From Eledone cirrhosa (Eukaryota), in contig OZ024744.1 of the NCBI GenBank assembly GCA_964016885.1, positions 103,106,001 through 103,170,000 on the forward strand: a DNA stretch of 64,000 bases, read 5' to 3'. The notes beneath the pieces were generated by a model. It was not told the DNA's origin and searched no databases. It saw only the letters and a program-made list of their open reading frames with translations. The translations under genes and the position numbers were made by a program. This document shows positions 31,137-57,550 of this stretch, one piece after another (position 1 is the stretch's first letter; each line of letters opens with the position of its first letter).

Positions 31137-34100
31137 AGTTCATTATATCAATATACACACTACCCTTTATATCAACATACACACTACCCTTTATATCAAT
31201 ATACACACTACCCTTTATATCAATATACACACTACCCATTATATCAATATACACACTACCTTTTATATCAATATACACACTACCCTTTATATCAATATAC
31301 ACACTACCCTTTATATCAATATACACACTACCCTTTATATCAATATACACACTACCCTTTATATCAACATACACACTACCCTTTATATCAATATACACAC
31401 TACCCTTTATATCAATATACACACTACCCTTTATATCAATATACACACTACCCTTTATATCAATATACACACTACCCTTTATATCAATATACACACTACC
31501 CACTATATCAATATACACACTACCCTTTATATCAATATACACACTACCCATTATATCAATATACACACTACCCATTATATCAATATACACACTACCCACT
31601 ATATCAATATACACACTACCCTTTATATCAATATACACACTACCCTTTATATCAATATACACACTGCCCATTATATCAATATACACACTACCCATTATAT
31701 CAATATACACACTACACATTATATCAATATACACACTACCCTTTATATCAATATACACACTACCCATTATATCAATATACACACTACCCTTTATATCAAC
31801 ATACACACTACCCTTTATATCAATATACACACTACCCTTTATATCAATATACACACTACCCTTTATATCAATATACACACTACCCTTTATATCAACATAC
31901 ACACTACCCTTTATATCAATATACACACTACCCTTTATATCAATATACACACTACCCATTATATCAATATACACACTACACACTATATCAATATAAACAC
32001 TACACACTATATCAATATACACACTACCCTTTATATCAATATACACACTACCCATTATATCAATATACACTACCCTTTATATCAATATACACACTACACA
32101 CTATATCAATATACACACTACCCATTATATCAATATACACACTACCTTTTATATCAATATACACACTACCCACTATATCAATATACACACTACCCATTAT
32201 ATCAATATACACACTACCCATTATATCAATATACACACTACCCATTATATCAATATACATACTACACACTATATCAATATACACATTACCCTTTATATCA
32301 ATATACACACTACACATAGTTCATTATATCATTATACACACTACCCTTTATATCAATATACACACTACCCTTTATATCAATATACACACTACCCATTATA
32401 TCAATATACACACTACCCAATATATCAATATACACACTACCCATTATTTCAATATACACACTACCCTTTATATCAATATACATACTACACACTATATCAA
32501 TATACACATTACCCTTTATATCAATATACACACTACACATAGTTCATTATATCATTATACACACTACCCATTATATCAATATACACACTACCCTTTATAT
32601 CAATATACACACTACCCATTATATCAATATACACACTACCCTTTATATCAATATACACACTACCCTTTATATCAATATACACACTACCCTTTATATCAAT
32701 ATACACACTACCCTTTATATCAATATACACACTACCCTTTATATCAATATACACACTACCCACTATATCAATATACACACTACCCATTATATCAATATAC
32801 ACACTACCCATTATATCAATATACACACTACCCATTATATCAATATACATACTACACACTATATCAATATACACACTATATCAATATACACATTACCCTT
32901 TATATCAATATACACACTACACATAGTTCATTATATCATTATACACACTACCCTTTATATCAATATACACACTACCCTTTATATCAATATACACACTACC
33001 CATTATATCAATATACACACTACCCAATATATCAATATACACACTACCCATTATTTCAATATACACACTACCCTTTATATCAATATACATACTACACACT
33101 ATATCAATATACACATTACCCTTTATATCAATATACACACTACACATAGTTCATTATATCAATATACACACTACCCTTTATATCAATATACACACTACCC
33201 ATTATATCAATATACACACTACCCTTTATATCAATATACACACTACCCATTATATCAATATACACACTACCCTTTATATCAATATACACACTACCCATTA
33301 TATCAATATACACACTACCCTTTATATCAATATACACACTACCCATTATATCAATATACACACTACCCATTATATCAATATACACACTACCCTTTATATC
33401 AATATACACACTACCCATTATATCAACATACACACTACCCATTATATCAATATACACACTACCCTTTATATCAATATACACACTACCCATTATATCAATA
33501 TACACACTACCCTTTATATCAATATACACACTACCCATTATATCAATATACACACTACCCTTTATATCAATATACACACTACCCATTATATCAATATACA
33601 CACTACCCTTTATATCAATATACACACTACCCATTATATCAATATACACACTACCCATAGTTCATTATATCAATATACACACTACCCATTATATCAATAT
33701 ACACACTACCTTTTATATCAATATACACACTACCCATTATATCAATATACACACTACCCATTATATCAATATACACACTACCCTTATATAAATATACACA
33801 CTACCTTTTATATCAATATACACACTACCCATTATATCAATATACACACTACCTTTTATATCAATATACACACTACCCATTATATCAATATACACACTAC
33901 CCTTTATATCAATATACACACTACCTTTTATATCAATATACACACTACCCATTATATCAATATACACACTACACATTATATCAATATACACACTACCCTT
34001 TATATCAATATACACACTACCTTTTATATCAATATACACACTACCCATTATATCAATATACACACTACCCTTTATATCAATATACACACTACCTTTTATA

Positions 34101-35853
34101 TCAATATACACACTACCCATTATATCAATATACACACTACACATTATATCAATATACACACTACCCTTTATATAAATATACACACTACCTTTTATATCAA
34201 TATACACACTACCCATTATATCAATATACACACTACCCTTATATAAATATACACACTACACATTATATCAATATACACACTACCCATTATATCAATATAC
34301 ACACTACCCATTATATCAATATACACACTACCCTTTATATCAATATACACACTACCCTTATATAAATATACACACTACACATTATATCAATATACACACT
34401 ACCCATTATATCAATATACACACTACCCATTATATCAATATACACACTACCCATTATATCAATATACACACTACCCATTATATCAATATACACACTACCC
34501 TTTATATCAATATACACACTACCCTTTATATCAATATACACACTACCCTTTATATCAATATACACACTACACATTATATCAATATACACACTACCCATTA
34601 TATCAATATACACACTACCCTTTATATCAATATACACACTACCCTTTATATCAATATACACACTACCCATTATATCAATATACACACTACACATTATATC
34701 AATATACACACTACCCATTATATCAATATACACACTACACACTATATCAATATACACACTACCCTTTATATCAATATACACACTACCCTTTATATCAATA
34801 TACACACTACCCATTATATCAATATACACACTACCCTTTATATCAATATACACACTACCCATTATATCAATATACACACTACACACTATATCAATATACA
34901 CACTACCCATTATATCAATATACACACTACCCATTATATCAATATACACACTACCCATTATATCAATATACACACTACCCATTATATCAATATACACACT
35001 ACCCATTATATCAATATACACACTACCCTTTATATCAATATACACACTACCCTTTATATCAATATACACACTACCCATTATATCAATATACACACTACCC
35101 ATTATATCAATATACACACTACCCATTATATCAATATACACACTACCCTTTATATCAATATACACACTACCCTTTATATCAATATACACACTACCCATTA
35201 TATCAATATACACACTACCCTTTATATCAATATACACACTACCCATTATATCAATATACAAACTACCCATTATATCAATATACAAACTACCCATTATATC
35301 AATATACACACTACCTTTTATATCAATATACACACTACACACTATATCAATATACACACTACCCTTTATATCAATATACACACTACCCTTTATATCAATA
35401 TACACACTACACACTATATCAATATACACACTACCCATTATATCAATATACACACTACCCTTTATATCAATATACACACTACCCATTATATCAATATACA
35501 CACTACCCTTTATATCAATATACACACTACCCTTTATATCAATATACACACTACCTTTTATATCAATATACACACTACCCTTTATATCAATATACACACT
35601 ACCCTTTATATCAATATACACACTACCAATTATATCAATATACACACTACCCTTTATATCAATATACACACTACCCATTATATCAATATACACACTACCC
35701 ATTATATCAATATACACACTAACCTTTATATCAATATACACACTACCCTTTATATCAATATACACACTACCCATTATATCAATATACACACTACACATAG
35801 TTCATTATATCAATATACACACTAGCCATTATATCAATATACACACTACACAT
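31137..35853. repeat. 24-bp minisatellite, about 195 copies
   Basis: Unit TATATCAATATACACACTACCC(T/A)T with CTT/CAT/CAC variants. The 8-aa periodic ORFs (ISIYTLPF, GSVYIDIK) are by-products of the 24-bp period. Confidence 0.98.
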
Positions 35854-35917
35854 GCTAGCAGAAAAACCACCGTTTGGGTGGTTTTTCTTCTAGCATTGGT
35901 AGTGTGTATATTGATAT
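35831..35917. repeat. Inverted repeat with 41-bp arms and a 5-nt loop
   Basis: ATATCAATATACACACTACACATGCTAGCAGAAAAACCACC-GTTTG-GGTGGTTTTTCTTCTAGCATTGGTAGTGTGTATATTGATAT; 3 mismatches. Confidence 0.95.
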
Positions 35918-36326
35918 TATATGCAAGTATATATACATGTAGATATGATACATCAAATAAAATCGTAATTGACAATATATAATACATAGAAATTGAATGA
36001 AGACTGCGTTACACTGTGTTCTGTAATCAGTAAAGTAATCCATGATACATTAAATAAGACGATATTATATATAAACTGCAATAGAAGTAAATTAGTATGT
36101 TTATTTAACGATGGCCAACCGGAAGTGTTGACATTTCAGAAATTTTAAAGAAGTGAATCTTTAAATAAACAAAATATATTTAATCAACAGCCACGAAATT
36201 TAAAAGATAAATTATGTAATATTCATTCATTATTTATTCAAAGTAATCCAACTTAATTTACTTATGGGATAAACAAAATTATAAACCGTACGCAGTCCCG
36301 CGCTCCTTACTTTATTATAGTTTAGA
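35856..36326 (-). mobile_element. Non-autonomous Helitron-like element (3' boundary uncertain)
   Basis: Minus strand starts A|TCTAAACTATAATAAAG at 36326. Positions 36117-36170 are the reverse complement of about 43162-43213 (AAATGTCAACACTTCCGGTT), which lies in a Helitron-like element. A hairpin plus CTAG occurs at 35856-35881, but the CTAG is followed by C rather than T. Confidence 0.5.
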
Positions 36327-36338
36327 TATATATGTATA

Positions 36339-37273
36339 CTAGCAGCAGTACCCAGTGTTGCCTGGGTAGGTAAAATAATATCTGCTTTGATGAAAAGGTG
36401 TTGATCTTAGCGACTGCTTCTCGACGACTCATCTATGGCCATACGGGGGAGGGTGGTGATGACCTCTATCACTGAGAAATGCGGGTGACTGACGAAGGGG
36501 CATGCTGGAGGAGGGAGGTAATGACCTCTAACACGAAGCGAAATTTCTTCATGCTACTTGATTGGAAACCGATGAATTCTCAAATACACAAGTAAAAGCT
36601 CAGACGACGTGAGTGGCCATCGTTTTGCCTTTGACCAACTATAAGATGTGCAATGATAGGTTCTATTGTAGTATAAAAATTGAACCAAATAAATTGATTT
36701 ATGTGTGAGGTGGAGCCGAAGTTTCGAATTTGAACGAAATTGGTTGAAAAATGTGGGAGCTAATGATAGGTTCTATCGTAGTATAAAAGTTGAACCAAAT
36801 AAATTGATTTGTGTGTGAGGTGAAATAATCAGATCTAGCGTAGTGTAAAATTTGAACAAAGTAGGTTGATTAATGTGGGAGCTAGAGCCGAAAAAGTGGG
36901 AATTTGAGTCTAAAAGTGGTAATTTTGAATATTCAAGCGGCTGCCACGCCGTCCCTGAACAACAAATGCAAAATATAAAGTCATTACAAGATGTGCAATG
37001 ATAAATTCTATTTTGCTTTAATGAAATCGGTGGCAAAATATGGGAGCTAGAACCAAAAATCTTATTTTTCGATACCTAAAAAAGGTGACTGCCCTATCGA
37101 TTTTTATCTGCAAAATGACCCCGGAATAAAAAAAACGATACGCTGATATATAGAAAACACTCCCCGATGAATAATCTATGAGCCTGTAAAGTTTCATGAA
37201 AATCGGTCGTAAGATGTAGGCCCCTATAGGTAATACACAGACACACACATACTTAATTTTATATATATACAGA
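36339..37273 (-). mobile_element. Non-autonomous Helitron
   Basis: Minus strand: 5' A|TCTGTATATATATAAAATTAAGTATGTGTGTGTCTG; 3' hairpin ACCCAG-GCAACA-CTGGGT (36350-36367), then CTAG|T at 36339-36342. Internal diverged direct repeats at about 36645-36900. Confidence 0.8.
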
Positions 37274-37278
37274 TATAT

Positions 37279-37670
37279 AGAAATAGGATTTTGCTTCAAG
37301 CATAGCGTTATACATATATGTATAGAAATTTCGTATTTCTAAAGAAACACGGTTTTAGGAAGCCGTAGCTATGTAAACATCGAGGCTAACGCCCTCTGGT
37401 GGTGTCCAGCAGAAGCAAGGGGACAACCGTCTATGCATTTCAGGCTTGACTGGCCTTCCTCAGGACAGTCCCTCCCACCGCTTGCAACTGCTGGACTTGA
37501 AAACAGTCGAGAATATATAGTTTTTTCGTTTGTGTAAATGAGGTGATTAATCTCATTTGCATATAAAGCTGCATAAGTTGGCTCAACTTATAATAGAAAA
37601 GAAATAGGATTTCGCTTCAAGCATAGCTTTATACAATTATGTATAGAAATTTCGTATTTCTAAAGAAACA
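37279..37670 (-). mobile_element. Hammerhead-containing element with 71-bp direct terminal repeats (retrozyme-like or Penelope-derived, unit 321 bp)
   Basis: 37279-37349 and 37600-37670 are near-identical (AGAAATAGGATTT...TAAAGAAACA). The internal region carries a complete hammerhead; flanks are TA-rich; no ORF; no TG..CA LTR ends. Confidence 0.75.
37425..37470 (-). ncRNA. Minimal type I hammerhead ribozyme
   Basis: Minus strand GACUGUC-CUGAGGA-AGGC-CAGUCAA-GCCU-GAAA-UGCA-UA-GACGGUU. Stem I is 7 bp (two G-U), the CUGANGA and GAAA core is intact, stem II is 4 bp, stem III is the palindrome AUGCAU, and the cleavage triplet is AUA (cut between 37432 and 37431). Confidence 0.88.
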
Positions 37671-37678
37671 TATACTTA

Positions 37679-37685
<7 letters not shown>

Positions 37686-37711
<26 letters not shown>

Positions 37712-38580
37712 TTCATTTATTGGCCACAAGGGCCGACATATAGGGGACAATACAAAAGACTGGGACAGTGGAGTTTTACAGAAAAATCAAGTAAACAATA
37801 TGAATAACAATAACAAAATAACAATAAAATTACAACAAGAAAAAATTCCCCAATAGGGGGGGATGACCACCCAGGGTTCGCTCAGATACCCCACCAGTCC
37901 TGAACGACCCGACGCTTCGAGAGCACCCTGGAAGGGCACCCCTCTCCTCCTCAAATTTACCTACCTACAGCCACATGACCAGAGTAGCCCCACTCACACG
38001 GGTCATTCTCGCCGCATTCACCCACCTTTCAGCAAATGTACTAGGGGGCAGCACTTCTCTCTCCTCCCTCACCTTCCTTTCCAAGTGAAAATTGAAAAAG
38101 TTGATGAGGGATTGGCTGAAGAGAAAAGTGTCTGTCTTCAGTCCTTTCAACCTCGTCCACCTTAAAACCTCTTTCGCTACTGCCACCAGACAGAGGAAAA
38201 TTGCCTGCCCTTACTGGCCAATAGAAGGCGGCGGGTCGATCTTCACTATGGACTCGGCTGATAGCCGGATCCGTTCTACACGCGACAACAGCTGTTCAAC
38301 ATAACTCCACAAGTCAGTAATGCACGGACACTGGACGAGTGCGTGCAGAATGGTTTCGTCGCTCTGCCCGCATCTCGGGCAGGTCCGTCTGACAGCACTT
38401 CCGTGCCTGTAGAGTTTATCTCGAACCGGCAGTGCCCTCCATTAGCACTGCCAAGCGAGGGATTTTTGGGAATTATTCATCGTCCCCGGCTCGAAGGTCC
38501 TCCGGGTCAGACTGGTTAGTTTGACTTCGTCGATTCCCAGAGCCTCTTCGAGTGCGTCGTTGCACTTGCCCACCACTAAT
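37686..38580 (-). mobile_element. L1/Tx1-like LINE 3' fragment (ORF2 C-terminal zf-RVT-like region), copy 1
   Basis: Minus-strand translation SLAWQC*..ALPVRDKLYRHGSAVRRTCPRCGQSDETILHALVQCP...VAKEVLRWTRLKGL (CCHC-type motif); 3' end has AATAAA and an (ATT)n tail at about 37686-37710. Confidence 0.75.
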
Positions 38581-38582
38581 CC

Positions 38583-39170
38583 TTTACCACAAGGGTTGAC
38601 ACAAAGTATAACATTAAAGACAACACAGGACAATACAAATGGGCATTTCTGTATGTAAAAAAAAACAGAGTATGTGACAAAAAAGGAAACAATGAAAAAT
38701 TCCCAAATAGGGGGGAGACCTCCGAGGGTTGCTCGTGGAGAAAGCCCACAAGAAAAGCCATGGTTACCCTGACCACCAGGGCAAATGCCTTCTTCCAGTT
38801 TTCCTCCTATGATGCTACAGGCACACACTCAGGGTAGACCCATTCACACGAGCCATTCTTGCCTCTCTCACCTACCTCTCAACAAACTGGCTGGAAGTCA
38901 GCACTTCCCTCTCCACCCTGATTTTCCTTTTCAGGTGAAACCTGAAAAGGTTAATGAGGGCGTGACCGAAGAGGAAAGTACCCGTCTTCAACCCTTTCAG
39001 ATGTGTCCACCATGCAATCTCTTTTACCATGGCCACCAGGCAGATAAAAACTGCCTGCCCTTCTCAGCTAAAGGAAGGTGGCGGGGCAATTTTAACGATG
39101 GGCTCAGCTGATATCCGTCCTACACGCGACAGCAGGTGTTCGGCATAAACCCACAAGTCAGCAATGCTCG
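38583..39170 (-). mobile_element. L1/Tx1-like LINE 3' fragment, copy 2 (diverged)
   Basis: 38830-39165 is colinear with 37985-38325 (e.g. CTACACGCGACAGCAGGTGTTC vs CTACACGCGACAACAGCTGTTC); the 3' end shares CCACAAGGG with copy 1. Confidence 0.75.
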
Positions 39171-39852
39171 GTTTCATAACTTTTGTTATGACAGGGCCAC
39201 ACCAACATCAGATTGGTACTTTCATTGTTAATATTGCCTTCAGGAAAAGCTTCTTAAGCTCTATATTTTTGGACTGTATGTTTTTGAACTCTATATTTTG
39301 GTACTCTATGCTTTTAGGCTCTATATTCTACTGGATGGATATTATGACTAATATTATAAAACATTTTGCCTGAAATCTATATATCCTTTGATATTTATAT
39401 AAAATTTTAATACCTACAATTACCATTCTGCTTACATTACATATATTGCAAGTACTCTACTGTAATGATATTTTAACTATAATATTCTTGTTATAATTAA
39501 TAACCATATCCTTATACATAACCTATACCTCCAATTATTTATATTATAGCTTTATTATAATTTTTATAATAATATTGGGTTAGGGTGAGGGTTGGGGTTG
39601 TGGTTGATGTTAATGTTGGAATTGGGGTTAAGGTTAGTGGGTATAGAAAAATCCAGGAGAGAGAGCAGGTCCAAGGGTACCCCCTTTTCCCCACTTACTT
39701 TTCCATTAAAAAATGTCCTTTGCATTATATTAGGAGGTAAGTTTAATTGATTGCACTTGAACAAAAATATGATGAAAAAAAATTACTATTTCCCACTAAA
39801 ATTGGTAAGGATTGTCTTTCTATAAATTTACCAAAACAAGAACTGTCAGAAC

Positions 39853-46714: not shown

Positions 46715-49617
46715 TTTTTCCTGGGCAAAATTATTCGAACAGACATGACCTCATTGCCAGAGTGTTCAGACTGAAACTGGCTAAACTCATGGCTTTAATC
46801 AAAAAGGTCAGGTATTTGGGGCTGTAAAATGTGACATGTTCACCGTCGAATGGCAAAAACGAGGGCTGCCACATGCTCACATTTTGATTTGGTTAGCTGA
46901 TAAAATCAATTCAAATGCCATAGACAGCTTCATTTCAGCTGAAATCCTTAACCCAGCAACTGACCAGGAATTACATGACATCGTCAAAGCTAACATGGTC
47001 CGTGTGCATCGGGTCTTAATGAGCATCACACGTGTCTGAAAGGGGGGGGGCGTGCAGTAAGGGATACCCCAACAAATTTGTTGACCAGACTCAGACTGGT
47101 GGCGACGGGTACCCCCTGTACAGGCGGAGACGGCCCGAGAACGGTGGCTTCACCACAACAGTAAGGGGAGGTCAAGTCGACAATAGATGGGTGGTCCCTT
47201 ACTGCCCGCTTCTCTTGAAGATGTTCAACCCCCACATAAACGTTGAGTTTTGCAACTTCGTCAAGTCGATAAAATACATATGCAAATATATAAATAAGGG
47301 CTCTGATACCGCAATGTTTGCATTTCAAGCTGAAAATAGCAGCGTCGAGGTCACAGAATACCTGGCGGGGCGGTACATCAGTAGCAATGAAGCTTTTTGG
47401 CGCCTATTTGGTTGACCCCTACACCAACGTCACCGCGCCATCGTACAGCTTGCGGTACATTTGGAAAATGGGCAAAGGGTTTACTTTACGGACCAAAGCG
47501 CCGCCAAGTTGGCCGCCGATCCGAAAGAGACCACTCTGACGGGTTTCTTCAAACTTTGTCAGTTCGATACATTTGCGCAAACAATTGTGTACCCCCAGGT
47601 TCCATCCGACTTTATATGGTCGAAAAACACTTGGGTGCGAAGAAAGTCAGGCCAGGCTGCTGAAAGACATCCTGGTGTAAAATTTGACAGCTGTCTTGGA
47701 AGGGTTTACACTGTGCCCCCAAGTCAGCATGAGTCCTTTCATCTCCGCCTTCTTCTGCATGAAGTTGTAGGCCCACAAAGTTTTCAGGACCTCAAAACTG
47801 TTGATGGAGAAATATGTGATACGTACCGGGAAGCCTGCTTTAAGCGTGGTCTTTTGGAAGATGATTCGCAATGGGATTCCACTTTAGCAGAGGGTGCTTT
47901 GTTGAAATTACCTAAAGGTCTACGAGAACTCTTTGCCATTTTGCTTCAAAAGAGTGAATTGGGTGATCCCAAATCTTTATGGGTCAAGTACAGAGACTTC
48001 ATGTCTGAGGACTTCCTGCGCCTGGCTAATCTGCAGTATACTTCAGTGGAAGTTGGTTACAGCGACATTATCTACAACAGGGCACTCATTGATATCGAGG
48101 ACGCCCTCCTCGACATGGGTGGGAGTGAGTTAGCGACGTATGGCTTGCCGTCAACCGTCAGAGCGGAAGCTAACACGTTGGCCCCGGATTTGTTGCGGCA
48201 ACAGCATATGACATTGAATCTCTTTCCCAATACTTAGAGGAAAATGAGCCCAAACTTCTGTCGGACCAAAGGTTGGCCTATTTAACTATCATTGACGCGG
48301 TTCAAAATCAGACTGGGGGTATTTACTTTCTCGATGCTCCTGGGGGTACCGGAAAAACTTATGTAACGAAATTGATTCTCGCTAAGATTCGTCAGGAAAA
48401 AAATTGCGTTGGCCGTTGCATCGTTCGGGATCGCTGCTACTTTGCTGCCAGGAGGCAGGACAGCACATTCAACCTTTAAACTCCCCTTGGATTTAGTAAA
48501 AACTGAGACACCAACATGCAATATCAGCAAGAGTTCACACGAAGCTCTGGTTCTCAAAAAATGTTGCCTCATTGTTTGGGATGAGTGCACAATGGCACAC
48601 AAGGGTGGCCTTGAGGCATTGGACAGGACCCTGACATGCATTAGGGATTCTACGGCTCCTATGGGTGGTGTAACCCTTCTGCTATCAGAGGATTTTCGGC
48701 AAACGCTGCCTGTCATCTCCAAAGGGACAAGAGCTGATGAAGTGCGTGCCTGCCTTAAGTCGTCCATGTTGTGGCTCCAGGTGAAGAGTTTGTACCTGAG
48801 CACAAATATGCGTGCTCATTTACATGGTGACAACATGTCTGCAGCATTTGCTCAGAATATTTTAGCACTTGGTGAGGGCAAGGTCCCTGCAGATGACAAG
48901 GACAGCATAGCAATCGACTCCCTGTGCAACATTGTCAGCAGCCCTTCTGACCTTTGGGAAGCAGTTTTCCCTAATGTCTCATCTAACTTTAAAAACCTCG
49001 ATTGGCTCAGCGAAAGAGCCATCCTTGCTCCGAAAAATACCATGTTTAATTTTATTAACCAGCAGCTGATTGAGAAGATTCCTGGTAAAGAACACATCTT
49101 CAAATCTATCGACCGGACGTCAGACCCCGACGATATCCTTAATTATCCAGTTGAGTTATTAAATTCCCTTGAGCCCCCAGGGCTCCCACCTCACATTCTT
49201 AAGCTTAGGGTTGGCTGTCCCATTATGCTAATAAGGAACTTGCATCCACCAAAGCGGTGCAACGGTACTCGTATGGTCGTCAAGTAAATGACGCCCCACT
49301 TGATTGAGGCCACCATTGTAACGGGGTGCGGGAGAGGGGAGAATGTTTTAATTCCAAGGATGAACCTTTTCCCCTTGGCGTCAGATATCCCATTCGATTT
49401 CTGGCGATCCCAATTCCCGGTGAGACCATGTTTTGCCATGTCCATTAACAAGTCACAAGGGAAAACATTGTTGGTGGCGGGCATCCATTTGGGGGAGCCA
49501 TGCTTCTCCCATGGCCAACTTTATGTTGCCTGTTCCCACGTAGGGAGCAGGAATGGACTTTTTGCTTACACTCCTCAAGGGATGACATGCAATATCATCT
49601 ACAAAGAGGTGCTATAG
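46715..49617 (+). pseudogene. Helitron RepHel (HUH Rep endonuclease + PIF1-family helicase), frameshifted, N-terminus missing
   Basis: Rep motifs VEWQKRGLPHAHILIWL and YICKYINKG; helicase motifs FLDAPGGTGKT, IVWDECTM, DFRQTLP, QFPVRPCFAMSINKSQG, FSHGQLYVACS; ends NIIYKEVL*. Split across at least six ORFs by frameshifts and a stop at 49285-49287. Confidence 0.95.
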
Positions 49618-49987
49618 ATGTTGGTGCAGGTGTTGGAGGTGTTGGAGCTATGCCGTCTGGAAAACTGGTAGGGTCACCCATAGTGGACAGATCTGACACC
49701 CAGCGGCATCAGGGCCACCATCTTGCAACTTTGGTCTACTAAATTTGCTATTGGAAGATTATTAACCCATCATTGATTGTCCAAAATGCTAATTGGTTCG
49801 TAACTTTTAATAACCGGTTCAACTGCTTTATGCACTTCATTGATAAGCTTATGCGCTTTCAAGCTACGTTTACCTCTATGTAACTTTTCATAGCAATTGA
49901 ACAAACCCGAGCAACGCCGGGCTAAACTGCTAGTACGTACATATACATACATAAACATGTTATTTAGGGTTGTATAAAAAAGAAGTA

Positions 49988-50255: not shown

Positions 50256-51746
50256 TAGGAGTAGATGAATGGCTTAGGAGTAGATGAATGGCTTGTGAAA
50301 GCGGTACAAGCCATGTATAGGGGAGCAGTCAGCAAAGTTAGGATTGGCAATGAGTATAGCGAGGAATTTAGCGTACAGGTTGGGGTCCACCAGGGCTCTG
50401 TTCTTAGCCCTCTCCTGTTCATCATAGTCCTGCAGGCAATAACGGAGGAGTTTAAGACCGGATGCCCATGGGAACTCCTGTATGCTGATGACCTCGCACT
50501 CATAGCTGAATCTATGGTAGAACTAGAGAATAAATTCCAAACCTGGAAGCAGGGACTAGAGAGAAAGGGCCTCAAAGTCAACATGACAAAGACTAAGGTC
50601 CTTATAAGTAGACGAGAAAACAGAACCCAGATCCCCTCAGGGAAATGGCCTTGCTCAGTATGTAGGAAAGGTGTAGGTAGGAACTCCATTCTTTGCCCCA
50701 AATGCAAACAATGGGTACACAAGAGATGTAGCGGGATCTCAGGAAGCTTAATTAAGAATGTAGGATTCACATGCAGCAGCTGTGCTGAAACAGCAAGCAA
50801 ACAGCCACAGGAAACAAGTACCACCAATCTCTGGGAGGGCCCTGTAGAAACAGTAGACAGCTTCTGCTACCTAGGTGACCGAATTAGCAACGGAGGTGGG
50901 TGCTCAGAAAGTACAATAACTAGGGTAAGAACGGGATGGAAGAAGTTTAGGGAACTACTACCACTGCTAGCTGCAAAAGGCTTCTCCCTCAGAATGAAAG
51001 GCAGACTGTATGATGCGTGTATCCGAACAGCGATGTTGCATGGTAGTGAGACCTGGGCGCTGAAGGTGGAAGACTTACGTAGATTAGAGAGAAACGAAGC
51101 CTGCATGCTCCGATGGATGTGTAACAGTAATATACGTGAACGACAAAGCATAAATGAATTGAGAGAGAGACTGAGCATAAGAGGAATCAAATGCTGCGTG
51201 CAGGAGAGGCGGTTACGCTGGTATGGACATGTGATGCGTATGAAGGATGACAGCTGCATAAAAAGGTGCAGAGCACTAGAAGTTGATGGAAACCGCGGAG
51301 TGGGGAGACCCAAGATGACTTGGGATGAGGTGATAAAAGCCGACCTTACCCAACTACACCTCTCAAAGTCAATGACACACGACCGTGACTTCTGGCGTCA
51401 CGCAGTAATACAGGGTACCCGACCTCCCATGGGTACATGCTGAAGCATATAAACAATATGCCCCCCCCCCCCACCGCAAGGTGGTCGTGGAGGTGCCACG
51501 GCAAAAAAGCACCCAGCCCACACTGTAAAGTGGACGTGTAGGCGCCACGAAAAAGCACCCAGCACTCACTGTAAATGAGGTTGGTGTTAGGAAGGGCATC
51601 CAGCTGTAGAAATCAAGCCAGATCAGTTCCTGTATGAGCAAGGCATGGTCAGCCGACCAGACACTGCCCACAACAGGACAACCCGTCTAACCCATGCTAG
51701 CGTGGAAGAACGGACGTAAAACGGTGATGATGATGATGATGATGAT
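50256..51746 (+). mobile_element. Young 5'-truncated RTE-clade LINE
   Basis: Uninterrupted 392-codon frame, 3' UTR with internal ~49-bp repeats, (GAT)n tail at 51725-51746, and a 19-bp tandem duplication at the 5' junction. Confidence 0.93.
50265..51443 (+). CDS. Partial RTE reverse transcriptase (C-terminal half) of a truncated retrotransposon; probably not translated in place
   Basis: Motifs VGVHQGSVLSPLLF, LLYADDLAL, GLKVNMTKTK, a Cys-rich insert CSVC...CPKCKQWVHKRC, FCYLGD, MLHGSETW, RRLRWYGHVMRM and GRPKMTW. Confidence 0.85.
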   Translation: MNGLGVDEWLVKAVQAMYRGAVSKVRIGNEYSEEFSVQVGVHQGSVLSPLLFIIVLQAITEEFKTGCPWELLYADDLALIAESMVELENKFQTWKQGLERKGLKVNMTKTKVLISRRENRTQIPSGKWPCSVCRKGVGRNSILCPKCKQWVHKRCSGISGSLIKNVGFTCSSCAETASKQPQETSTTNLWEGPVETVDSFCYLGDRISNGGGCSESTITRVRTGWKKFRELLPLLAAKGFSLRMKGRLYDACIRTAMLHGSETWALKVEDLRRLERNEACMLRWMCNSNIRERQSINELRERLSIRGIKCCVQERRLRWYGHVMRMKDDSCIKRCRALEVDGNRGVGRPKMTWDEVIKADLTQLHLSKSMTHDRDFWRHAVIQGTRPPMGTC

Positions 51747-54825: not shown

Positions 54826-57550
54826 CGTATTGGATTCTAACACAAGACTCTCTCACATCAACTAGATAGATATGCATGCATGTCTGCGTGCATGCATGCA
54901 TGTGTGTGCAGGTATGGATGTTATTGTATGTGTGGATGTGGATGTTTTGAGTTGTATGTGTACATGTGCATATGTTTTGTATCTGTACATGTGTATATGC
55001 AGTTATTAGATGCAGAATTTCTGGAATGTTTTACATATTTTTACTGTTCCATTAATGGATTGTACTTCTAATTTCCTAACTAGTTGTGTTATATCTGTTT
55101 CTGTGAAGCCCAGCTTCTCAAGATTTGTATTGAGGCAGTTACTAACATATCTCAGTGACCCCAATAATCACAGGTATTAATCTGAAGGTATAGTGAGGGT
55201 GGTGTATCTGCAGATTTCTCATTAGTTCTGCATAGATATTCTCCTTTTCACTAATCTTTGATATTATATTGACATCTGCTGGACAGCTAACTTCCACTAC
55301 TGTGCATGTCTTCTTCTCCCTGTCCCATATCATTATGTCTGGTCTGTTATGCCTGCATTTTATTAGGCTTTTGACTGGAACATTCTACAAGTACTCTTTC
55401 ATATTATGAATATGTATGTCTTCCACATTGCAGTAAATTTTTAAGTGTTTATTATCAGGAGGCTATCTTTTCTATGGATTGCATTGTACAGTGTTTTGGC
55501 CACTACATCATGCCTCATAGGTAGATAGTACCGCGATGACATCTTTGGACAGCTGCTGATGACATAGGTGATACCTTCGATTTTAGTTCTGCAGAGTCTG
55601 CACTTGTTATCACATCTAGGTGTTTTGCCTGCATCCCTTTCTCTTTTGTCAATCAGGTATTTTATTGTTATTGCCTGTTCTTGGATTGCAAAAGCGTATC
55701 CTTCAAAGTGGGAGCCAATATAGCGGTTGTTGGTCCAAGATAGACTACTTTTTTTATCTATATTACTCTCGCTCTGGAGCCTCCTGTCAACATATCCATG
55801 CATGATTATTTGCTGATAAGCATGCAGTTTTTCATCGATGGAATCACTGCCGTATTGCTGGGCAATTTCCCTGGGTGTGAGAGTTTTTGATTATCATGCA
55901 GGGAGTATCTTTCGGGGTGTGATGAAAAATTCCTAATTAACAAAACTGCAATGTCCAACTCTCATGATCTTATCTGTCTCATGCAGACAGACATGTTCAA
56001 TAGATGGGCTCCTATGCTTGGAGTCTGGTAGATGTTGTCAGAGGGATATGATGTGACACTTGAATACTGTCTGGACTTATGTTAGCCCCCCCCCCCCCTC
56101 CCCGCTTACATTTCAAGAGGTGGTCTATGTCACTGGATGTGAAATTTTCTGGTTTTGTTTATGATTTTTGGGGCTTTAACATCAATTGCTCGGATTTCGT
56201 CTGTCGTTCAATCGAGTATTCCAAACGTTGGTGTTAGGACAGGCACAGCAATCACATTGTGTGTAGAGATTTCAGATGACCGTATTTTTCTTAATCAGGA
56301 GTAATATTCCCTGGTTACACATACCTTGTTACAGATTCCATTATAGGATATATTCTCACCTATCCCTGTAGCAGTCCTTGTAGGATATTGGCGAAACAGT
56401 TAGGTCATTGATAAAAATCTTGCTAGATTGGCTTGCTGTTTTTCTCCACTTTACAATCATATGTGAACCTTTATCCTTGCCAAACTCCATTCCTATATCC
56501 TTTGAGTATGTCATAACCAGGTCAAGGTTTCTCTTCATCCCATTTATGTTCTTGGCATAGAGTTTAAGGTCATCCACATAGAAATTATTTGTTAGGTTTG
56601 TATTTGTCATCATGTGAGCCAACTATATATCCTTCACATTTCTTGAGAAAGGACAAGGGGTTTAATGACAGGATAAATAATATCACAGAGAGACTGTCTC
56701 CTTGAAATATACCCCTGTGATATTCTATTTTATCAGTGAAAATTGAGTGCTCCTTCTCTGTCTTTAACTTTAGGATAGAACCCCAAGAAGAAGACAGCCT
56801 CTCTATGGCTCTGATAATAATGTCTGGGACTTTAGCAAGCCGGAGGGCCTCTATCATCCAAGAGTAGGGAACAGAATCAAATGCTTTCCTGTAGTCCAGC
56901 CAGACTGTAACCATATTTCTCCTAAGTTGCCGCACCTCTGACATTGCAGTTTTGTTAATTAGGAATTTTTCAGCACACCCCCAAATACCTTTCTTCCAAG
57001 CAGCTTGTTCATTTATGATGATGTCATTACTGTTGCAGTGATCTTGGAGGAATAGGTTCAGGCAGGCTGTATACATCTTATACATCAGGTTTTGGCATGC
57101 AATGGGTCGTTAGTTTTTTGCCAAGTGGGTGTCTTTGTTCTTGGGGACCAGTATTGTTTGTGCTAATGTCAACCATTCTGGTATAAGTGCATCTCCTTTG
57201 AAAGCTTGCTGGTTGAGGTTGATAAGATACATCTGATAGAATGTCAGATTTTTGTACCAGTAGCTGACAATCAATCTCTTCCTGGAGTTTTCCTATCACA
57301 GTCTCATTTATTTTGTATGTTTTTGTTGTAGTGTAGGAGCAATAGTTCTTTTGGATTTCTTTTAGCCACACTGCATCTTAGTTGAAATTCTTCTTTTCAC
57401 TACATATTTTTCTCCAGAAGGAATCTATGTCTTTCTGGGATGGGGCCTCAGTGACATTTATTACTTTGTCCTTCATATCTCTATAGACTGATATTTGGTT
57501 TTGTCTGAATCTTTTATGAACTACTTTTCTTTCAGCTACCTTCTTCTGGT
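54826..57550 (-). mobile_element. R4/Dong-like non-LTR retrotransposon (RT + CCHC + restriction-like endonuclease), decayed and 5'-truncated
   Basis: RT motifs WLDYRKAFDSVPYSW, RGIFQGDSLS and FYVDDLKLY; zinc-knuckle region CRLC...ISSC...RHD; RLE motif HNRPDIMIWD...VVEVSCP...K..EK..IY; several frameshifts. Confidence 0.9.

Follow-up and report, generated by a model that had tools for sequence, protein, structure and literature searches.

The repeat at positions 37279-37670 of the window (the whole 64,000-nucleotide stretch of Eledone cirrhosa DNA analysed here) is best read as a decayed, one-armed copy of a non-LTR retrozyme, likely mobilised in trans by a Penelope element and probably copied from a circular RNA formed by self-cleavage and re-ligation; we give this reading odds of about three in four. 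Judged on sequence criteria, the family is a non-LTR retrozyme and so belongs to a known class: it has a type I hammerhead, a low-GC, non-coding unit of about 300 nt, and family copies in which several ribozymes run head to tail. The class has been described, with Penelope elements proposed as its helpers (Cervera and de la Pena, 2020; PMC7229834), and non-LTR retrozymes have been argued to be non-autonomous derivatives of Penelope (Li, Clavereau and Pollet; bioRxiv 10.64898/2026.07.22.740005). An earlier, sequence-only reading of this DNA had suspected an undescribed system, which these papers do not support. It had also proposed a mobile, hammerhead-carrying family of non-LTR retrozymes, and this was borne out: a 17-mer from the ribozyme has 1,608 exact matches in the genome, against 0 for a control, and the copies are dispersed and hold no open reading frame. 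The repeat has spread to well over a thousand genome sites.

The copy in the window

The copy contains two direct repeats of 71 nt each (37279-37349 and 37600-37670; 94% identity, spacing 321), as first noticed, and a complete hammerhead on the minus strand with every part that had been ascribed to it (Table 1). The ribozyme occupies unit positions 130-175, with a predicted cut after unit position 168, following AUA. Stem I joins 37470-37464 with 37431-37425 in seven pairs, G-U wobbles included; the core comprises CUGAGGA (37463-37457) and GAAA (37441-37438); stem II has 4 bp and a 7-nt loop. The assignment to type I stands but the label 'minimal' does not, since a short palindromic helix III is present, which in the nomenclature of PMC4209133 marks the canonical metazoan type I form. 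The family subset to which the window copy belongs has A10.1-U11.1 at a position where that paper gives G-C as the conserved pair.

A descriptor scan found one motif in the window, versus none in 200 shuffles of 28 kb. When the whole unit is folded, pair probabilities are 0.58-0.93 in stem I and 0.91-0.92 in stem II, and the ribozyme sits at the tip of a long helix; the folding z-score is -2.89 for the unit and -0.45 for the 56-nt motif alone. The Rfam hammerhead model, a check suggested by the earlier reading, gave no match in the window at its gathering score, and at E<=10 there were 11 weak unrelated matches and no hammerhead. In a co-fold of two 54-nt motifs the palindromes pair and stems I and II misfold, so the co-fold does not demonstrate a dimeric ribozyme. 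Folding the whole unit gives the hairpins predicted at the 3' sites a probability near zero, and we therefore claim no recognition structure there.

Table 1. Features of the retrozyme copy, in window coordinates
Feature	Position	Strand	Remark
Full retrozyme unit, 321 nt	37279..37599	-	unit position = 37600 minus window position
Upstream partial unit, 5'-truncated (unit 251-321), makes the 71-bp direct repeat	37600..37670	-	
Type I hammerhead motif	37425..37470	-	predicted cut between 37432 and 37431
Palindromic helix III, AUGCAU	37433..37438	-	intermolecular pairing in co-fold
Long helix extending stem I, 9+5 bp past the ribozyme	37404..37496	-	pair probabilities 0.92-1.0
Site S1, first preferred 3' end of family copies (unit 266-298, mostly 276-291)	37302..37334	-	putative start of reverse transcription
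Site S2, second preferred 3' end (unit 305-321)	37279..37295	-	the window copy's own 3' end
TA-rich flank, 3' end	37256..37278	.	putative target microsatellite
TA/TAA-rich flank, 5' end	37671..37709	.	

The unit is 40.8% GC and non-coding, and a tRNA search of it found none. The window copy differs from the commonest family letters in 13 columns (95.8% identity), its exact 45-nt ribozyme occurs a single time in the genome, and no clear target-site duplication surrounds it. A tblastn search found no Penelope open reading frame in the window, and the copy has none of the joint reverse transcriptase (RT) and GIY-YIG coding that characterises an autonomous element. By its structure the copy is a one-armed product ending at S2, an ordinary decayed member of the family. 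With one ribozyme in 1.2 units, it is not 'active' in the sense of Li et al., who require two consecutive complete ribozymes.

Elsewhere in the window lie a 48-bp satellite of about 30 kb (1-30035), a 24-bp satellite that ends in a 44-bp inverted repeat (31141-35920), a broken Helitron-like element with PIF1 helicase domains (47000-49620), and RT fragments of non-LTR elements (50265-51443 and 56585-57109), one with a PHD finger. Adjoining the retrozyme copy on its right are two diverged repeat copies about 850 bp apart (37710-39200).

Family, subfamilies and ribozyme variation

Searching the genome with the unit gave 3,245 first-look candidates; the 40 that were scored are 92-96% identical, the window copy excepted. 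Pieces longer than 200 nt have a median identity of 93.6% to the commonest letters. Direct dimers, with two exact ribozyme 17-mers one unit apart, number 35, and the sole long array of the window family that we found is an old one of about 10 units (L188:5632-8936, G000:C2:83920631-83923935), 77-87% identical to the window unit. Tandem sources are thus scarce in the window's subfamily. A pattern for an older subfamily matched 252 times; its copies are 70-87% identical (one of 30 loci reaches 92%) and share the phase and the ends. Older subfamilies as a whole (L210-L239, L244-L253) are about 68-87% identical and mostly have G-C as the first stem II pair together with an AUC triplet.

We aligned the structure across 53 copies: the window copy, 29 family copies and 23 of 30 older-subfamily loci, the other seven being left out for truncation, indels or duplication. 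Paired cells make up 94.3% of the ribozyme and 93.9% of the long helix that extends stem I. One stem I pair (CG in 28 copies, UA in 21) and three stem II pairs have changed on both sides. There are 9 covarying pairs versus 6.2 in shuffles (35 of 500 as good), a count not clearly above shuffles; the covariation reflects few events between two subfamilies, and the core of the older set was fixed by the search pattern. Within these bounds, the paired changes suggest that the ribozyme structure is under selection across subfamilies. The sequence-only reading had called for a look at stem covariation and core conservation among copies. The former appears between subfamilies, but the latter does not: in copies that were not chosen on the motif, core columns are 4.2% non-majority, against 4.7% elsewhere, as would be expected of neutral decay after insertion. 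The most variable ribozyme column (48%) is N7, a free core position, which follows the subfamily markers.

Anatomy of the insertions

Taking the first 100 listed 17-mer matches in genome order, we obtained 80 loci and, after removal of four duplicates, 76 insertions; five matches, presumed copies of one segmental duplication, were left out of the sample. Forty-three insertions are head-to-head, 30 are one-armed and three are complex. Their 3' ends fall into two narrow zones 30-45 nt apart, with 52 of 116 ends at S1 and 49 at S2 (unit position 305 or beyond), 101 ends together, and 15 elsewhere; some S2 copies extend several bases past the unit end into the next unit. Both ends could be classified in 30 of the 43 head-to-head pairs, and 27 of these combine one S1 with one S2 end (binomial p = 4e-6). 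The S1-S2 interval corresponds to a Penelope-type tail. Whether copies are circularly permuted or tandem had been put forward as a check; with 3' ends at two fixed sites, free permutation is rejected.

The 5' ends, by comparison with these 3' ends, are scattered across the unit. Microsatellite runs (TA, CA or CT) adjoin 86 of 120 3' flanks, versus 193 of 1,520 background windows, and also occur at 17 of 32 5' flanks. Copies read through the cut site: none of 36 5' ends lies at the cut (unit 165-175) in this sample, which was anchored just downstream of it. These read-through copies bear out the earlier idea of reverse transcription across the unit junction and the cut site. We found no poly(A) end on the copies, no shared non-unit 5' flank apart from one locus pair and same-locus or segmental duplicates, and, by tblastn, no Penelope protein match abutting the unit in 143 sampled loci and the window, so that attachment to a Penelope open reading frame, which would have made the family an ordinary remnant, is not what these loci show. 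The insertions look like Penelope insertions, with 5'-variable partial tandems, an inverted 5' arm, a one-sided tail, and microsatellite or AT-rich targets.

A younger relative

The genome also contains a young relative with a unit of 310-312 nt, for which an exact 23-mer matches 17,976 times. It is homologous to the window unit in register (global score 37, against -36 +/- 12 and a maximum of 2 in 200 shuffles). We examined 18 insertions (L241 at G000:C1:1239718-1244451, L242, L243 and L315-L329). Fourteen are two-armed, and in 13 of those each arm ends at a different one of two sites that lie 36 nt from each other. The arms form perfect head-to-head tandem arrays of up to about 10 units each. 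Each insertion has one variant set, bar changes in single units, and about 12 sets occur among the 18. Such uniformity would be the expected trace of copying round one small circle, and uniform source arrays would produce it equally well. Array collapse may account for the short arms seen in the older family.

Priming and template

The two arms probably arose from two separate primings. An inverted arm made by fold-back synthesis would place one arm inside the other. Such nesting is absent from 15 of 27 S1+S2 pairs of the window family and from 3 of 12 pairs in the young relative; later collapse might blur nesting in old pairs, less in young ones. Both arms were thus likely primed on RNA. Arkhipova et al. 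(2013; PMC3846280) proposed self-priming of the inverted arm, whereas the non-nested arms seen here argue for two primings. Units of an insertion have rare variants in common at rates of 3.45 and 2.57 per kb; between loci the rate is 0.55. This sharing fits a single template, and it also fits later gene conversion.

The template was usually a circle or an uncleaved multimer, as the lack of a 5'-end pile-up at the cut implies; a linear cleaved monomer as the usual template is rejected on the same ground. The 1.2-unit shape of the window copy, first taken as a trace of a circle, fits that origin but does not prove it, being also the shape of an ordinary Penelope partial tandem or of a collapsed array.

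One locus bears on cleavage itself. Nine pieces start at unit 160-178, and a start at 169 occurs only in the two arms of L040 (L040:1140-1976, G000:C4:58160442-58161278). Here an exact cut-to-cut monomer (unit 169-321-1-168) sits within sequence of an unrelated hammerhead family, dividing it precisely at that family's predicted cut. Beyond the monomer the partner family resumes at its cut, matching L202 at 82% over 157 nt, and the first junction recurs in the inverted arm. The structure could have come about through RNA ligation or through template jumps between cleaved ends. Either route needs cleavage, which favours a cut-and-joined RNA. We take L040, a single case and indirect, as a sign that cleavage and joining take place in vivo. 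A genome-wide search for more chimeras with two patterns yielded seven matches for each, the only clear one being L040 itself. L335 and L330/L331 were considered as chimeras and set aside, as they end at 168 with no ribozyme cut upstream; L050 was set aside likewise. The partner in L040 is another hammerhead repeat family, seen at L202:2205-2547, L014, L047 and L199.

Penelope elements in the genome

A GIY-YIG scan of the genome returned 10,597 candidates, and autonomous elements with RT and GIY-YIG domains are abundant. In two of the autonomous elements, L205 and L195, the two arms recur and just one of them bears a tail, and in the L205 family a hammerhead lies upstream of the two-arm ends. 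No similarity to the unit was found in the 50 Penelope loci examined among these candidates. Against two Penelope 3' ends the unit aligned no better than many shuffles (237 of 300 and 36 of 300 as good), and the best 3'-end alignment was that of the young relative with L205 (8 of 300 as good). L240 and 14 further loci were tried as helper partners and turned out to be neighbours or family copies.

We noted two Penelope families, one at L190:3809-6622 (-), L195 and L199 and one at L193, L197 and L205, both with RT plus a GIY-YIG domain at the C terminus. In one, copies are 94-98% identical with a 938-codon open frame; the other has a compact hammerhead in its 3' end. Further unrelated hammerhead motifs occur in repeats near Penelope loci (L195:33, L200:8068, L208:6962, L199:7591-7708).

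Discussion

We envision the following cycle. Transcripts with at least two ribozymes would cut themselves, likely in dimeric form via the AUGCAU palindrome, after which ligation would join the monomer ends. A Penelope-like helper, with its reverse transcriptase and GIY-YIG endonuclease, would cut both strands of a TA-rich microsatellite, as the positions of the ends suggest. Each strand would then prime synthesis at its own internal site on the RNA, the two sites lying about 110-120 and about 150 nt downstream of the cut. Synthesis would cross the cut site and the unit junction and stop at variable 5' points, a course that can be read in the DNA structure of the copies, as can the joining of two arms head to head and the retention of a single product in one-armed copies. 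With one ribozyme and about 4% decay, the window copy would release no monomer by itself and could not alone yield unit-length RNA.

The same family and a Penelope-type enzyme could also work from a linear, uncleaved multimer transcribed from a genomic array, in which case the ribozyme would be of minor importance and a circle unneeded. Frangieh et al. (2024; PMC11167929) found that uncleaved RNA dominated as template in vitro, the 10-unit array exists, uniform arrays would give uniform transcripts and hence uniform insertions, and read-through of the cut suits this model and the circle alike. We nevertheless think it improbable: a cut-to-cut monomer joined at the cut ends of another ribozyme, as in L040, needs cleaved RNAs, stem changes between subfamilies are compensatory, and the many variant sets of the young insertions, each uniform, are simpler with single small templates.

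Two other explanations deny the family its independence or its ribozyme a role. In the first, the copies are no more than end pieces (pLTRs), left by truncation of an autonomous Penelope element. Upstream of a full unit, its own 3' end comes again instead, in head-to-tail order and as many as 10 times, and the protein searches and 5' flanks described above give no Penelope match next to the unit; this account is very unlikely, even though every end feature is a Penelope insertion feature and these elements are plentiful here. Dispersed copies and one tandem array would suit a SINE- or satellite-like repeat that owes its spread to a LINE or to DNA recombination and carries the ribozyme-like motif as a passenger. 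That idea is largely refuted by the missing tRNA and poly(A) end, the covarying ribozyme, the two internal 3' sites, the head-to-head arms and the S1+S2 pairing. A retrozyme mobilised in trans by Penelope, probably from a circle, remains our preferred reading.

Like the metazoan non-LTR retrozymes of Cervera and de la Pena, the family has a non-coding unit of about 300 nt, GC below 45%, head-to-tail units, no LTR features, and a canonical type I hammerhead with a short palindromic helix III. It differs in that the window's subfamily consists mostly of head-to-head pairs and of dispersed pieces shorter than two units, long arrays not being its usual form; theirs were shown to be expressed and to form circles. 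With the families of Li et al. it shares co-occurrence with Penelope and many monomer-type copies. Their link to Penelope is pLTR similarity and co-distribution in 35 species, by their description including no mollusc, and the link drawn here is insertion anatomy, with no matching pLTR among the 50 loci compared. They add a phylogeny, state that the mechanism of retrozyme mobility is still to be found, and report that eight of nine dimers assayed did not cleave.

With endonuclease-bearing Penelope-like elements (Craig et al., 2021; PMC8557442; Arkhipova et al., 2013; Frangieh et al., 2024) the family shares 5' truncation, partial tandems, an inverted 5' copy, a one-end tail of 30-40 nt, TA microsatellite targets, two internal start sites and a hammerhead near the 3' end. 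Unlike them, it has no open reading frame. Frangieh et al. (2024) measured two internal start sites and two-strand cutting, and account for the Penelope pattern by these sites together with cutting and extension of each strand. Our literature search found no paper on the family, none on retrozymes of octopus or other cephalopods, and none describing chimeric retrozyme junctions; Repbase, Dfam and the preprint's supplements lay outside it.

For the mobility of animal retrozymes, the insertion ends carry the Penelope signature and give likely RNA start sites. The arms argue against fold-back synthesis, and the L040 junction would be a record of two ribozyme RNAs being cut and joined. The young relative, whose matches would amount to about 5.6 Mb if each were a full unit, offers near-identical natural dimers and the best material for cleavage, circle and transposition assays. 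There is perhaps an even chance that this genome preserves the retrozyme cycle in full, as a fossil record: monomers of different families were ligated at their cut ends in vivo, and a Penelope enzyme, priming from each strand of a single microsatellite break at two different sites, rolled round one RNA circle.
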